Shown piece by piece: positions 13,756 through 47,400 of a stretch of 64,000 nt of DNA. Under the pieces are notes generated by a model, which ran no database searches, had not been told where the DNA came from, and was given only the letters and a program-made list of their open reading frames with translations. Numbering within the stretch: position 1 is the first letter of the stretch; each line of letters starts with the position of its first letter. The stretch lies in assembly GCA_041665345.1 (NCBI GenBank), contig JBAYJA010000001.1:521206-585205 (forward strand), in the 5' to 3' direction. Source of the DNA: Patescibacteria group bacterium. Lineage in GTDB: Bacteria; Patescibacteriota; Patescibacteriia; PEXW01. The position numbers were made by a program, and so were the translations under genes.

Positions 13756-13779
13756 GACCTCCCGCAATTGCAGGAGGTC
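13756..13779. terminator. Near-perfect 24-bp palindrome hairpin between convergent genes
   Basis: gacctcccgcaattgcaggaggtc. Confidence 0.45.
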
Positions 13780-13785
13780 AGGTTG

Positions 13786-14082
13786 CTAGTCAAGCACTTG
13801 GCAAACAGAGCTGTCGAATACGAATGCGCCCATGTGTACGAGCGGCGCATTGTTTTCCCACCAGGCGCATGCTTTTTGGTTGCTTTGGCGTAAGATGTTC
13901 AGGGCTTCTTTGGTATTTACCTGAAAGCCACTTCTGTTCACTCGTTTCCCCGTCAGTACACCCCCGACGTATCCGCCAGGGCTCGCGTACTCAAAAGGTA
14001 GTTCTAGTCCTACCCAAGCTTCACGCACCCAGTCAGGTGCTTCTCCAGGAGGAGGAGTGACAATGAGAATTTTCCCGGGCAT
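13786..14082 (-). CDS. Hypothetical protein
   Basis: 98 aa ORF convergent with the 13462 gene. Confidence 0.35.
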   Translation of the reverse strand: MPGKILIVTPPPGEAPDWVREAWVGLELPFEYASPGGYVGGVLTGKRVNRSGFQVNTKEALNILRQSNQKACAWWENNAPLVHMGAFVFDSSVCQVLD

Positions 14083-16753: not shown

Positions 16754-16860
16754 TCTGGCTAACCCATTGTCAAGCAGCCCTGCGCTTGGGGGTTTTTGGC
16801 AACCCTTGCATTTTTCAGCCGCCGGAGTAACCTAGTCTCTATCCCTCAAGGAGGAGGAAA

Positions 16861-17046
16861 ATGCTCATTTCTTGGTTGCGTCAGAAGTTCAGTACGCCCC
16901 CAATTGCCGTTTCACACGAACCACTGTGCCCGTGTGGAGGCACACTCCAACATGCCGAAGCAACAACGTCCTTTGCGTGGCTTGTCTGCAGTAAGTGTGG
17001 ACTTTTTCGCCACCCATCTTGCGTTGCCGGGTTTGGAAAAAAGTAG
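16861..17046 (+). CDS. Small zinc-ribbon-like protein
   Basis: 61 aa with CPCGG...CSKCG cysteine pairs. Unusually strong SD (AAGGAGGAGG) 5 nt upstream. Confidence 0.45.
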   Translation: MLISWLRQKFSTPPIAVSHEPLCPCGGTLQHAEATTSFAWLVCSKCGLFRHPSCVAGFGKK

Positions 17047-17047
17047 C

Positions 17048-17093
17048 CGTTGGTCACCTGACTGACGGCTTTTTCTTCCCTTTTTTTATGCGT
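17048..17093 (+). terminator. Rho-independent terminator
   Basis: agccgttggtcacctgactgacggct hairpin followed by a T-rich run. Confidence 0.55.
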
Positions 17094-17127
17094 AGAAAAC
17101 CCAAAAAGTCTGGTATACTACCAGAAT

Positions 17128-39326: not shown

Positions 39327-39521
39327 ATGGACCAAGAAGCAGAGTTCAAGAGTACCCACGGCGGTATGACGCCGCAAGAGGAGTACTGGGTGAACCATAA
39401 AGGGCGACGGTGGAGATGGGATGAATGGGGCTCGCCAGTTGGCTTAAGCCTGGGCTGGGCACTCTTCATAATCCCCCTGGGGATATTCCTGTACTTCCTG
39501 CACCTCTCGGGCATTATCTAG
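39327..39521 (+). CDS. Small membrane protein
   Basis: 64 aa with a C-terminal TM helix. Confidence 0.35.
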   Translation: MDQEAEFKSTHGGMTPQEEYWVNHKGRRWRWDEWGSPVGLSLGWALFIIPLGIFLYFLHLSGII

Positions 39522-39540
39522 CATCGCAGTGGTAATGCAG

Positions 39541-39578
39541 AACCGACCTCCTTTGTAGGGGGTCGGTTTGCTTTTTTA
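39541..39578 (+). terminator. Rho-independent terminator
   Basis: aaccgacctcctttgtagggggtcggtt followed by a T6 run. Confidence 0.65.
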
Positions 39579-42419: not shown

Positions 42420-42454
42420 CGATTGAAAAACGTTTTGCTTCTTTTGAGCCGCGG

Positions 42455-42530
42455 GGTGCCCCAACCAGTTGTTTGCAGATTCCCATCGCTGCAACTGGCC
42501 CACCCCCGGCTCTTTTTTGTGAAGAAAAAA
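42455..42530 (+). terminator. Compound (nested-hairpin) rho-independent terminator, paralogous to 43535-43607
   Basis: Outer ggggtg/cacccc stem, inner ccagttg/caactgg stem, then cggctcttttttgtg. Confidence 0.55.
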
Positions 42531-42663
42531 AGCAGAAGGTTAGTTCCAAAACTTTTTCCCGCTGTGGTAGAGCGTTGACTAAACGCCAAGGCAAGTTTGA
42601 GGATTTTTGGGTTGTATGAATTATCCATAGTGTAAATTTACGAAAGAATTGAAGCCCGAGCGA

Positions 42664-42702
42664 AGTAGATTGGAAAAATAAAAAGAAGCCCAGGCGAAGT
42701 TT
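42664..42702 (-). terminator. Rho-independent terminator for STAS gene
   Basis: aagcccaggcgaagtttcgtcgggctt preceded by an A-run, giving a T-run on the minus strand. Confidence 0.55.
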
Positions 42703-42739
42703 CGTCGGGCTTGTTTGGTATAAAACCGTAAGTGATGAG

Positions 42740-43108
42740 TTATGCAGAAGCGGAAAGGGAACGGTGCAGCACCTCTGCTGCCTTTTCTGCAGAAGGGTAG
42801 ATATACACTTCCTTATTCAAGAATGCGCATGCTAGTTGTATAAGGAGCGGGTGTTCACCACCAAGCGTGAGGGCAAGTTTCTGCTTTTTGTTGCCCAGGA
42901 GCTTGTGGATCAAAATGAGCTTGCCCACCGCATAGTCGCTAATGGCTGTAACGCCTGTCAGGTTTACGAGATGCAGGGTATACTCGTTTGCCTCATTCGT
43001 TATGGCGAAATCAAGTATATCCGCAACATAGTCATTAATGGCTCCTGTTAGCGTGTACTCCATAATATCCCGGTCGCGTACCTGCTGGACTAGTTGTTTA
43101 GGGTTCAT
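42740..43108 (-). CDS. STAS-domain protein (anti-sigma-factor antagonist-like)
   Basis: 122 aa with a STAS-like pattern. Overlaps the PadR gene by 11 nt, suggesting an operon. Confidence 0.5.
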   Translation of the reverse strand: MNPKQLVQQVRDRDIMEYTLTGAINDYVADILDFAITNEANEYTLHLVNLTGVTAISDYAVGKLILIHKLLGNKKQKLALTLGGEHPLLIQLACAFLNKEVYIYPSAEKAAEVLHRSLSASA

Positions 43109-43424
43109 TTTTCCTCACTTTTTTTGATGCCTTTGCAATTATCTCAAGTGATGCCTGAGTGATTCTTTGCCCTTTTTTTGTAAGTGCAAAATACGTTTTT
43201 GCACGACCACCACGTGTTGGGGTAGGTTGTCTCGTTTGCTTCGACAGCATTCCTTTTTTCACAAGCCGATTGAGGGTTGTGTATAGCGCGCCGACAGTTG
43301 GCATGTTTGCGAACTTGCCGATGTCTTCGCGGATGCTTATGCCGTAAGCGTTTTTGTTGTTTCGCATAACGGCAAGCATCACCAGCAATTCAAAACGTAT
43401 AAAGTGCATTTTTTTGATTTTCAT
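43098..43424 (-). CDS. PadR family transcriptional regulator
   Basis: Winged-helix signature ISIREDIGKFANMPTVGALYTTLNRLVKKG. Confidence 0.7.
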   Translation of the reverse strand: MKIKKMHFIRFELLVMLAVMRNNKNAYGISIREDIGKFANMPTVGALYTTLNRLVKKGMLSKQTRQPTPTRGGRAKTYFALTKKGQRITQASLEIIAKASKKVRKNEP

Positions 43425-43534
43425 TTTTCCTCTTTTGGAAATGCGTGATATTCAAATCATTTTATAATAGTAAGGCTAGCCCGTCAATACTATCTTATTG
43501 ATTGCCTGAATCTTGCGTAAGCACAGGGGTTGGA

Positions 43535-43607
43535 GCTTTCCCAGAAGTTGAGAACCGTACGGTACGATTGCTACAGCTGGCTCACCCCCGGCGCTTTTTG
43601 TGAAAAA
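43535..43607 (+). ncRNA. Candidate small RNA 3' end / terminator-like element, paralogous to 42455-42530
   Basis: ggggttggagc...gctcacccccggcgcttttt. No upstream + strand CDS. Confidence 0.3.
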
Positions 43608-43670
43608 ATACCCCGGTAGTTGGTGTCTACCGGGGGCTGCATCCCATATTCTACAAGGTTGAAAGGCTCC
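43604..43670 (+). repeat. Hairpin repeat unit A (aaaataccccggtag-loop-ctaccgggggctgcatcccatat...)
   Basis: Perfect 9-bp stem. Related to unit B. Confidence 0.6.
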
Positions 43671-43767
43671 CACAGCTGGAGTCCAAATACAGTCTGTGCG
43701 TCAATGGAGCCAAAAATACGGAATGAACAGGTTTTCAGTGTAGCAAAGTGCTTTCCTATGTCAAGAA

Positions 43768-43833
43768 CAAAATACCCCAGTAGCAAGCTACCGGGGCTGC
43801 CTTCCACATATGTAGAGGCTGATAGACACCCAC
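43768..43833 (+). repeat. Hairpin repeat unit B (aaaataccccagtag-loop-ctaccggggctgccttccacatat...)
   Basis: About 75% identical to unit A over about 65 nt. Confidence 0.6.
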
Positions 43834-43957
43834 ACAGGGTCAGTGCAAAGACGTACCTGTGCTTTGGGCGCCTAAACGAAAAATATGACAGATATAGGAC
43901 TTCGGCTTTGTATTCCTTTCGCCTGCAGTCAGAGGTACACAACCCAGCTACGGAGAT

Positions 43958-44296
43958 TTAGCGCGTCTGCCTGCGGTTTTTCGTGATATCCACCAATGCA
44001 GCCTTGGCTCGAGTGCCGCAGCTTCGAATGAGGACGTCCAAGGGCTTTTTGAGGAGTTCCAGAACCGTCTCCGGTGTTGGTGCTTGATCCAGCATACGCA
44101 AGGTTTTCGTGCTTTTTTGCTGGGTAGCGTAGGCCAGCCAGACGCAACCGCAGGTTGGACTTTCCCCCCGAACCGCGGCGTAGTGCGTGAAGGATGGATC
44201 TACATCATTGGGATGTACTCCTTCCAATTCTCGCAGGTCGTACCACGTTGTCACCGCGTGCAGAATAGTACCGTGCCGGGGGCAGAATATTTTCAT
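43958..44296 (-). CDS. Hypothetical protein
   Basis: ORF on the minus strand. Start chosen at the internal ATG (MKIFCPRHG). Confidence 0.35.
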   Translation of the reverse strand: MKIFCPRHGTILHAVTTWYDLRELEGVHPNDVDPSFTHYAAVRGESPTCGCVWLAYATQQKSTKTLRMLDQAPTPETVLELLKKPLDVLIRSCGTRAKAALVDITKNRRQTR

Positions 44297-44416
44297 TTTC
44301 AAATTTGGTTTTCGCATGCGCAATCTCCTTTTGTTTCTGTCTTTTGCATTCACTCTAGGTCGAGTTTTAGGCTTCTGTCAACGTCGTTTGCTCAGGCTTG
44401 ATTCTTCCGCAGGGGT

Positions 44417-47400
44417 ATGGCACCATGGGGCTACAGTGAAGGTGAACTATCACCTGAACATGTTTTTTCTCCGCTTACTGAATACCATATGGAAAATCCA
44501 GGGCAGCAGGCCGGTTCGTTTAAAGAGCATCCGTTCGATTGGAACGCGAAACTTGTCCGGTACTTCTTGCACAACTCCCGGCTGGTGTGGGTCATTATTG
44601 GCGCCATTGTTATTGGCGGACTTTTTGCTTTAGTACACTTTCAGCGCCAAGGCTTTCCTCAGGTAAGTCCGAAAATAGTCTTGGTGCAGACACTTTTTCC
44701 TGGAGCCACGGCAGAGGAAATGGAACGGCAGGTGACAAGCGTGATTGAGGCGGCGGTGAAAGATGTCAAAGGCCTGAAAGAAACGTCCTCAACGTCTGCC
44801 AACAGTTTTTCTAATGTTGTGGTTACCTTGGAAGAATCGGTGAATTTGGATACCGCCACCCAAGACGTGCAATCCAAAGTCCAGGCGATCCAGGCCGAGT
44901 TGCCAGACGATGCTGAGGCGCCAAAAGTAGAGACGTTCTCCACCAGTGGCCCAGCCTTCATCTTCGGTATTACGCACGAGAGCCAAAAGATAGACACGAT
45001 TCGTCAGGTTGCTAGTGACGTCATCCATGCATTGAGCGATGTCCCAGGAGTGAAGTCTGTCACGCTGGCTGCTGATGCCCCGGAGCAGATTCACATTACC
45101 TTTGATCCAGCAAAGATGTCGCAGGCTGGGGTCAACCTGCAAATTCTCCAGCTGGCACTCCAGGGCGCGAACGTCAATTTTCCTGCCGGCACTTTGGATT
45201 TGGATGGGAAAGCGCAGTCCATCGTAACGATTGGCGCCTATAGCAGATTGGAAGATATTTCGAATTTGCTTTTGGGTGTAAACCCGCAAACCAAGCAGCC
45301 GATTCGGGTTCAAGATATTGCCAAGGTCACCCGGGGTTTTGCAACCGAGGAAAACATTGATCGGTTTGGGTACATTACCAATAATCAGCTCGTGAGCCGG
45401 CCTGGTGTACTGGTGAATATTATGGTGACGAATGATGCTGATGTCATTAAAACCAAGGCCGCCATTGATGCCCACCTGGCAGAAATGCGAGACGCAAACA
45501 CATTGGCGAAAGAGGTGGACGTGGTTGAGCTCAGCGACACGGCGCGTGACACGAAGAACCAGATAGGCGAAATTTTAGATGGCGCAGTTGGATCGCCAGC
45601 CAATGCGTACTTCCTTGGGGGGATTCAGCTCCTTTTCCTGGTCATGCTGGTGTTTGTGAACTGGCGTACTGCCATTGTGGCCGCCTTGGCCATTCCGCTG
45701 TCCATGCTCTTCACGTTCACGGCTTTGGCCATCACTGGCACGCAGCTGAACACCATAGTGTTATTCTCTCTCATTTTGGTGCTGGGGTTAATTGTGGACC
45801 CAGCGATCATCATGATTGAGGCTATTCAACGCTACCGGGATCTGCAGCATAGTGCTACGGATGCCGTGTTGGAATCTGGCCGACGGTATGGCGCGTCACT
45901 GTTCATGGCGGTGCTAGCGTCCATCATTGTCTTCCTGCCCTTTGGAGTAGTGTCTGGTATCTTTGGGGAAATTATTACGTACATTCCGCTTACTGTCATT
46001 CCCGCGCTTATTGCCTCGTACCTCATCCCCATTGCCATTCTGCCCATGCTTTCCAAGTGGCTCATGCGGCCGCGGCGGGTGAAAGCCGGGGATCAGGCTA
46101 TAGCTGCCGAAGATGAAGGACTGTGGCCTGTTGCCCGCTGGTTCATGTCCGTAAGCCAAAAGTTGTTGAAAGCAAAGTGGCGGCAGATTACGACTATTGT
46201 CGTGGCACTCATTTTAGTCATGGCCTCAGTCTCTATTGTGGGCTCTGGCAAAGTGCAAGTGGTGCAATTTTCCAAAGCGAATGATAATCCTTACATTTCT
46301 ATTGATGCACGCTTTACCAAAGGGTTGACTTTCGCTGATCGGTCGGCCACAGGTACTGCCCTGGAAGCGCTTTTGCTGGACGAGCCAGGAGTGGCAAAAT
46401 TTTTCTACTACCAGCAGAGCCGGGATAACCTTTTCCTCTTCGCTGAACTACAAGCGAAAGCCGAACGGGATGCGGAGAATACTAGTAAAAAGATTGTGGA
46501 GCGTTTGAAAGCAAATGTTGCAGCTGTGCCGCACTTGGATGATGTGCTGGTGGGTGAGCTGGGCGTGGGTCCACCTGAAGCGGACTACCAAATCCAGGTT
46601 CAGTTGAATGATAATGACCCGACGATTCTGGAAAAAGCCGCGGTGGATATTGGCAACCACCTGCGCTCGTTGGAGCACATTATCCGGGTGGATGATGGCT
46701 ACACCGGGAAAGGCGAATCCGAAGTTCGGGTGACTCTGGATCGGACGAAAGTGCAAGTAGCGGGTTTGTCCAGCTTTGAAATTGGCCAACAGCTGAAAGC
46801 AGTAATCGGTGAAACCACGGTGACCAAGTTCACGGGCGAAGGTGGCTCAGCCGACGTCATTTTGAAGAACGGGGCTGTACCCAAAGACTTGGAAGCCATC
46901 CGCAACCTGCCACTGGTTAGTAGCCGCACAGGCCAAACGGTCCGCGTTCGTGACGTGGCGACGGTGCAGCAAGAATCAACAGTCAGTGCTATCCAGCGGT
47001 TTGACGGTCTGCGCTACGTCAGCGTCCGGGCCCGGATTGATGACAGCAAGAACTTGGTGGCCGTCCAGCAGAAGCTGAACGACTACCTGACCGATGAGAA
47101 GTTGGAGCAGTTGGGGATTGATAGCCGAGATTCCCGTGGAGACTTTGACGACATTGCCAAGTCATTCAAAGACTTGGGCATGGCGCTGGCTGCGGCCATT
47201 CTGCTCACCTACATTTTCCTGGTGCTGCAGTTCAAGTCCTTTTCTCAGCCGCTCATCATGCTCATCACCGTGCCGCTTTCGCTCACCGGCGTCTTCCCGG
47301 CGCTGCTACTCACCGGGTCTGACCTAGGCTTCCTGGAAGTGCTTGGCGTTACTATTCTGGTGGGGATTGTGGTAAGTGTAGGTATCTTCCTCATGGACTA

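Follow-up and report, generated by a model that had tools for sequence, protein, structure and literature searches.

The intergenic gap and its two units

The DNA studied here, a 64,000-nucleotide stretch of a Patescibacteria group bacterium (GenBank assembly GCA_041665345.1, contig JBAYJA010000001.1, positions 521,206 to 585,205) referred to below as the window, contains a 533-bp gap between a gene for a 119-amino-acid (119-aa) protein (44317..43958, minus strand) and a PadR gene (43424..43098, minus strand); the crude median intergenic gap in the window is 63 bp. Two copies of one element, at 43604-43670 and 43768-43833, lie within this gap. An earlier note on this DNA had placed them there, 164 bp apart, and these coordinates were confirmed: the shared 3' pattern GCAGCCCC-N12-24-GGGGTATTTT was found exactly twice in the 64 kb and in none of 100 shuffles. 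The same note gave the element a length of ~65 nt, which proved too short, as the homology comprises an RNA of ~128 nt together with a promoter-like stretch and thus covers a whole unit of ~164 bp. The two units, A on the PadR side and B on the side of the 119-aa gene, are tentatively read here as a tandemly duplicated small-RNA (sRNA) gene encoding two sibling sRNAs on the minus strand, a reading for which the case stands slightly short of even.

Smith-Waterman comparison of unit A with unit B gave a score of 47, against 15.8 ± 2.1 for shuffled sequences (0 of 2000 reached 47), and the upstream part without the hairpin still scored 23, a value attained by 15 of 2000 shuffles. One unit takes up the full 164-bp period, head-to-tail with its copy and made up of promoter, RNA and terminator with no spacer between, which indicates that the duplicated item was a complete gene. 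An independent Logan assembly (SRR18595301, L029; 1253 bp) was 100% identical across the whole locus, so the tandem arrangement is not an assembly artefact. A third copy was absent from the 64-kb window, as judged by nhmmer and by a covariance model built from the two units (R1, run with filters off).

The terminator scan detected a U-run after each hairpin on the minus strand only and none on the plus strand, so the minus strand is taken as the functional one. On this strand both hairpins conform to the definition of a Rho-independent (intrinsic) terminator, namely a G+C-rich stem-loop followed by a U-run. Terminator A was scanned with 9 pairs (7 of them G-C), a loop of 7 and the tail TATTTTTT, and terminator B with 10 pairs (6 G-C), a loop of 4 and the tail ATTTTGTT. 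The GC-rich 9-bp stems described earlier were therefore recovered, with 9 perfect pairs in A and 9-10 pairs in B, but the hairpins had been regarded as internal parts of an sRNA and each is in fact the terminator that ends its unit. In the B stem, the sole non-Watson-Crick position reads as G.U on the minus strand; on the other strand it would be C.A. A terminator-like structure reported before the first copy is present as well (43576-43592, plus strand); it is weak (5 pairs), has no plus-strand gene to terminate and forms part of a 43-bp direct repeat that is treated below.

Transcription signals, coding potential and fold

The sigma-70-type promoter of unit A begins 3 nt past the U-run of unit B and ends 26 nt before the first stem (P1) of unit A, with a predicted transcription start near 43730. 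Over 28.6 kb, with both strands scanned, 7 sites reached this quality (10/12), mostly upstream of genes, and with this rarity ~0.007 would be expected by chance in the 55-nt slot before unit A on the minus strand. Promoter-like sites as good as that of A are correctly placed before both flanking minus-strand genes, the one before PadR lying downstream of the unit A terminator. Unit B carries at the homologous place a remnant with too short a spacer and a -10 element without its final T; from the stop codon of the 119-aa gene, this remnant is ~25 nt and the RNA body ~60 nt downstream. As predicted in silico, A has a promoter and a terminator of its own, as an autonomous unit would, and the promoter of B is degenerate.

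The three long open reading frames (ORFs) over the region had no Pfam, NCBIfam or PHROG match, no start codon with a ribosome-binding site was found inside the units, and the two copies have no reading frame in common, 164 nt not being divisible by three. A protein-coding reading was rejected on these grounds, and the earlier description of the region as non-coding was upheld. The covariance-model search that the earlier note had proposed assigned neither unit to a known family, with 0 matches to Rfam 15 at the gathering threshold over the whole window. At E ≤ 10, the interval 43300-44500 returned only terminator-driven noise (Spot_42, NsiR1, anti-hemB, Phe_leader and MIR2629), the best sub-threshold matches being Spot_42 with 17.9 bits against a gathering threshold of 80 and NsiR1 with 15.6 against 39.

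Folding of each unit, also proposed in that note, gave structures far more stable than shuffles on the minus strand. Unit A reached -47.2 kcal/mol (z -4.33) and unit B -54.4 kcal/mol (z -4.92), with 0 of 200 shuffles as stable in either case, against plus-strand z values of -2.42 and -2.00, respectively. The order of elements is the same in both units: a UAUUUUU tract, P1 enclosing a second stem (P2), a C/U-rich linker with the consensus UnUCArCCU, a variable segment of 15 nt, GCAG and the terminator (Table 1). P2 closes a loop of 17-18 nt with the conserved core GUnUUUGnACU. The stems, this loop core, the linker and the U-tract were kept between the copies, the terminator stem being the best-conserved part (17 of 18 positions), and the terminator loop, the P1-P2 junction and the 5' extension were scrambled. 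On a hand-curated two-sequence alignment of A and B, the 23 pairs of P1, P2 and the terminator comprise 43 informative cells, and every one formed a standard pair, in both copies, compared with only 37-50% of cells when the 3' partners were slid by 1-3 columns; with two sequences, this result shows consistency, not proof. One P1 pair was changed on both sides (U-A to G.U, compensatory) and two pairs changed from G-C to G.U. The G.U pairs of the B terminator and of B P1 would be C.A on the plus strand.

Table 1. Positions of the features of units A and B and of the flanking signals in the window
Feature	Position	Strand	Details
Unit A, predicted ~128-nt RNA	43603..43730 (43730->43603)	minus	fold and blocks shared with B
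Unit A promoter, sigma-70-type	43737..43764	minus	TTGACA, 16-nt spacer, TACACT, TG before -10; 10/12 match
Unit A 5' extension	43730-43719	minus	alignment blocks
Unit A U-tract UAUUUUU	43718-43712	minus	alignment blocks
Unit A P1	43711-43706 with 43670-43665	minus	GGCUCC pairs with GGAGCC
Unit A P2	43699-43694 with 43675-43671	minus	(G)CACAG pairs with CUGUG
Unit A 18-nt loop	43693-43676	minus	
Unit A linker	43664-43656	minus	UUUCAACCU
Unit A variable 15 nt, then GCAG	43655-43641, 43640-43637	minus	
Unit A intrinsic terminator	43603..43636	minus	CCCCGGUAG / loop ACACCAA / CUACCGGGG, then UAUUUUUU
Unit B, paralogous RNA body	43767..43895 (43895->43767)	minus	fold and blocks shared with A
Unit B degenerate promoter homologue	43907..43932	minus	CTGACT, 14-nt spacer, TACAAA; read from sequence, aligned with A promoter
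Unit B U-tract	43885-43879	minus	
Unit B P1	43872-43866 with 43831-43825	minus	GGCGCCC pairs with GGGUGUC
Unit B P2	43862-43856 with 43838-43832	minus	GCACAGG pairs with CCUGUGU
Unit B 17-nt loop	43855-43839	minus	
Unit B linker	43824-43816	minus	UAUCAGCCU
Unit B variable 15 nt, then GCAG	43815-43801, 43800-43797	minus	
Unit B own hairpin	within 43819-43799	minus	3' end of linker, variable 15 nt, start of GCAG
Unit B intrinsic terminator	43767..43797	minus	(G)CCCCGGUAG / loop CUUG / CUACUGGGG(U), then AUUUUGU
119-aa protein gene, 3' untranslated region holding unit B	43958..44317	minus	gene call on source contig; AAGGAG ribosome-binding site
119-aa gene promoter-like site	44381-44352	minus	TTGACA-18-TAGAGT
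PadR operon promoter-like site	43459..43487	minus	TTGACG, 17-nt spacer, TAAAAT; 10/12 match
43-bp direct repeat, left copy	42485-42527	.	period 1082 bp to right copy
43-bp direct repeat, right copy	43567..43608	.	overlaps unit A U-run

Proposed sibling small RNAs and the rival explanations

The earlier note had left the choice between a duplicated small-RNA gene and a regulatory leader array. The small-RNA part of that proposal is favoured here by the promoter and terminator of A, the nested stem-loop common to both copies with its strand-specific G.U pairs, the z values and the non-coding character of the region, and the leader part is disfavoured. As in sibling sRNAs, the units are non-coding paralogues that resemble each other in sequence and in secondary structure. 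The ancestral unit would have been a complete gene of ~164 bp, consisting of a sigma-70 promoter, an RNA of ~128 nt and a Rho-independent terminator, and its RNA would have carried a 5' U-tract, the nested P1/P2 stem-loop with a 17-18-nt loop and a single-stranded C/U-rich linker. Following duplication in head-to-tail order, the promoter would have survived in copy A, which would give an autonomous transcript (~43730->43603), and copy B would have lost its good promoter and would be made mainly as the 3' end of the mRNA of the 119-aa gene, its product being a 3' untranslated region (3'UTR) or a 3'UTR-derived sRNA. Judged from these sequence features, both RNAs may be expressed and may act on targets in trans, pairing with them through the unpaired, conserved loop or the linker, whose CCUU/CCUC is complementary to the AAGGAG/AGAGGA ribosome-binding sites of the organism. 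A bolder extension, that the units are the founders of a lineage-specific class of regulatory RNAs of Kerfeldbacteria-like Patescibacteria, tied to the 119-aa Cys/His protein as an RNA-protein module, is quite improbable.

To our knowledge, descriptions of sRNA regulators in Patescibacteria are essentially lacking, as are those of an obvious RNA chaperone, and little work has been done on small regulatory RNAs in the Candidate Phyla Radiation / Patescibacteria; a full-text paper search found no study of them in this group. With genomes of ~1 Mb and short intergenic regions in Patescibacteria, a 533-bp gap with two promoter-RNA-terminator units makes a concrete, testable candidate, of modest importance while it is an in silico prediction made from one genome. 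Should the RNAs be expressed, the duplication that yields sibling sRNAs would operate in reduced, episymbiotic bacteria too, and the conserved loop and linker would provide a handle for target finding.

Tandem sibling sRNAs are known from OmrA/OmrB in E. coli, AbcR1/AbcR2 in Agrobacterium and Sinorhizobium and PrrF1/PrrF2 in P. aeruginosa, and the AbcR pair of S. meliloti sits between regulator genes (PMC4211561). The units here resemble these pairs in being two paralogous, here candidate, sRNA genes of ~80-130 nt placed head-to-tail in one intergenic region, each with its own Rho-independent terminator, and in an identity of 65-80% that is concentrated in segments. The three pairs are expressed and depend on Hfq, their conservation extends across genera and their targets are known, whereas the present units are known from sequence alone, have no sequence or Rfam relationship with them, and include one copy that lacks a good promoter and lies in the 3'UTR of a gene. 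As the promoter of unit A begins 3 nt past the tail of terminator B, read-through of that terminator would yield a composite B+A RNA resembling PrrH (PMC4211561). Such an RNA is purely hypothetical here, and terminator B is strong (10 pairs and a U-run). Unit B also recalls CpxQ, SroC and DapZ, the 3'UTR-derived sRNAs of enterobacteria, in sharing the terminator of the upstream protein gene, and it could act within the 3' end of that mRNA or be freed from it; this release is hypothetical, and an autonomous paralogue directly downstream would be unusual for that class.

Other systems with an outward likeness were rejected. NsiR1 (RF02399), a tandemly repeated sRNA array of heterocystous cyanobacteria, resembles the units in its tandem layout and, like Spot 42 and anti-hemB, was weakly matched by cmscan on the minus strand; these matches (13-18 bits against thresholds of 39-80, E values of 1.5-7.8) are carried by the generic terminator hairpin, and the units are not members of these families. 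The repeats of ToxI and TIGR arrays are a few tens of nucleotides long, occur in several copies that are not known to be individually terminated, and are coupled to ToxN-like or Nop-domain Tas proteins. Tandem non-coding direct repeats beside protein genes, in a lineage of parasitic bacteria, are what the locus shares with ToxI/ToxN arrays and with the TIGR arrays of Patescibacteria and phages (PMC12045711). A type III toxin-antitoxin system of the ToxIN kind, for which one terminator and then a gene for a ToxN/AbiQ-type endoribonuclease would be expected after the repeats, was nevertheless dismissed, since there are two units of 164 bp, each terminated, followed by PadR and a 122-aa protein without a PADLOC hit, and a TIGR array was dismissed on repeat length, terminators and neighbouring proteins, none of which has a matching PADLOC or Pfam hit.

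Several points weigh against sibling sRNAs. A credible promoter is lacking in front of unit B, only B and not A forms a hairpin between its linker and its terminator, and a recent neutral duplication could leave an equal pattern of similarity. With two copies in one genome, the covariation has almost no statistical weight, and its shuffle control was uninformative (228 of 500). No homologue was found by exact patterns in 185,579 species-representative genomes, JGI metagenomes and IMG/VR, collections from which the source genome is absent and in which its lineage is barely sampled. The pattern GCAGCCCCN{0,1}GGN{8,18}CYGGGGTATTTT gave 14 matches in genome_contigs, 6 in metagenome_contigs and 0 in viral_contigs, and the core pattern TGTGGGNGNCTNTCARCCT gave 8 in viral_contigs; all were unrelated terminators or chance words without flanking or upstream similarity. 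Nor was a homologue found by nhmmer and the covariance model in ~116 kb of related or PadR-homologue loci, and conservation in related genomes, as seen in sibling sRNAs, was thus not found in the pattern scans and related loci searched. Over the window and 14 loci, only units A and B were credible matches to R1. Two of these loci, L009 and L020, scored 17-22 bits and were rejected, as they had been chosen for the terminator pattern; the L009 match, judged by eye, follows a coding region, and the upstream sequence of L020 is nearly identical to that of L009. Among 66 translation-start regions of the window, which represents 6% of the 1.08-Mb contig, the seed-restricted target scan yielded no convincing target, none that stood out for both siblings, no outlier and no neighbour effect; whole-RNA duplexfold was meaningless for this purpose.

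The same absence of a homologue or target in the collections, loci and window searched would suit a duplicated 3'UTR/terminator module with no trans-acting role, the main rival explanation, which is unlikely on balance and yet has a real share of the probability. The serial terminators would stop transcription of the 119-aa gene and shield what lies downstream, first the glyoxalase gene convergent with it and, today, the PadR operon that was inserted, and the similarity upstream would be a residue of a neutral 164-bp tandem duplication. Such a module accords with the hairpin of unit B being the sole terminator downstream of the 119-aa gene, with the terminator stem being the best-conserved part of the repeat, and with the 43-bp direct repeats, which suggest an ancestral convergent gene junction, where tight termination matters. 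It fits poorly with the position of that hairpin, whose stem begins 160 nt past the stop codon (43958), a distance of 6-30 nt being seen for 4 of the 5 other strong terminators in the part of the window that was scanned, and with the high-quality promoter between the two terminators, which a fail-safe pair does not need. Between the copies, moreover, P1 and P2 persisted, one pair having changed in a compensatory way, whereas the terminator loop and the junctions diverged fully, and the unusual stability extends beyond the hairpins to the whole RNAs; these features argue against such a module.

The position of the units upstream of PadR on the same strand, each ending in a terminator, and the precedent of tandem attenuators, a known architecture, would also allow the units to be read as leaders in tandem, riboswitches or protein-dependent attenuators, which govern in cis the read-through into the PadR/122-aa operon. 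This explanation is very unlikely. When the 3' arm of the terminator was blocked, the best alternative folds were 15-17 kcal/mol weaker and left the 5' arm unpaired, so a riboswitch-like switch is not apparent, and aptamer families had no Rfam match even at E ≤ 10; lacking a comparable antiterminator fold and a recognisable aptamer, the riboswitch/attenuator class was set aside. PadR has, in addition, its own promoter-like site downstream of unit A, and the 43-bp repeats around its cassette, together with the lack of an RND-linked PadR ortholog in the loci of relatives, suggest that it was inserted later. A relic or non-autonomous mobile element, for example of the IS200/IS605 type with similar subterminal hairpins, or a dispersed repeat family is very unlikely as well. 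The similar hairpins in direct orientation ~164 bp apart and the surrounding block, which is lineage-specific and rearranged relative to relatives, would agree with such an element, and the copy count covers only the small part of the contig given above. Against it stand a neighbourhood without transposase or integrase, the lack of any further copy in the 64 kb, the absence of a match in phage and plasmid collections (blastn 'distant'), and the U-run, promoter and G.U pairs, which point to a function at the RNA level.

Neighbouring genes and other gaps of the window

The 119-aa gene, PadR and the gene for the 122-aa protein are all on the minus strand, like the units, so the PadR operon lies downstream and is co-oriented; the earlier note had it as divergent. 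That note also called the 122-aa protein a STAS protein, for which Pfam gave a sub-threshold match only (E 0.08, 13.2 bits against a cut-off of 22.6 bits). The 119-aa protein had no family match. It is nevertheless a real protein, as its conserved homologue shows: this one true homologue, P0194 (NCBI/Logan contig, 22,240 bp), has the same length and 49% identity, and C12, H15, C56 and C58 are invariant between the two and form a possible zinc site as far as the sequences tell. A match of the 119-aa protein to the LGP2/RIG-I C-terminal RNA-binding domain (E 0.6) was discarded, being lost with a two-sequence profile, and the single-sequence AlphaFold model (pLDDT 47) was unusable. The G+C fraction is 0.55-0.575 in the 119-aa gene and 0.38-0.43 in the PadR region.

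The two copies of the 43-bp direct repeat are ~86% identical (Smith-Waterman 49, against 16.0 ± 2.1 for shuffles) and bracket the PadR and 122-aa cassette, and this repeat has the appearance of a scar, left by a cassette insertion or by att-type recombination. Taken with PadR's own promoter, these repeats suggest that the cassette entered beside RNA genes that were already there; its insertion is probably the later event, which weakens any functional tie of the units to PadR. An inverted repeat, ATAGTA-N15-TACTAT (43467-43493), spans the spacer of the PadR promoter with the palindrome GGCTAGCC at its centre, and it may be an operator for PadR autoregulation; its 6-bp arms are near chance level.

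The closest PadR homologue has 55% identity and other neighbours. For the RND pump, the nearest relative of the source is Candidatus Kerfeldbacteria (78% identity), and the loci of relatives of the pump in Candidatus Kerfeldbacteria at 70-78% identity lack the whole block of the 119-aa gene, units, PadR and 122-aa gene. The block 42420-44416, between the glyoxalase gene and the RND pump, was absent beside the pump in L039, L041 and L042, and this minus-strand block is, on the loci compared, lineage-specific. L042 keeps the glyoxalase, 3-dmu-9_3-mt and DUF1801 families in another order, with the DUF1801 gene last, directly upstream of the pump. The longest ORF of the RND pump (1088 aa; window 44417-44489) starts 72 nt before the start annotated by NCBI (1064 aa, P0074); measured from the annotated start, the pump and the 119-aa gene share a divergent promoter region of ~170 bp instead of 100 bp.

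Other long gaps of the window hold features of their own. A 64-aa ORF on the plus strand (39327-39521, within 39327-39569) with a hydrophobic C-terminal stretch is followed by a terminator at 39540-39569, and a 98-aa ORF on the minus strand (13786-14082, within 13756-14082) by a terminator at 13779-13756. Both ORFs are unannotated, lie in long gaps and have a strong terminator within 6-18 nt; they are probably real small genes. The 374-bp gap at 16754-17127 contains several terminator-like hairpins on both strands, among them a strong one on the plus strand (17045-17070, 11 pairs) that lies 291 nt past the preceding stop codon, and this gap may be another non-coding region.

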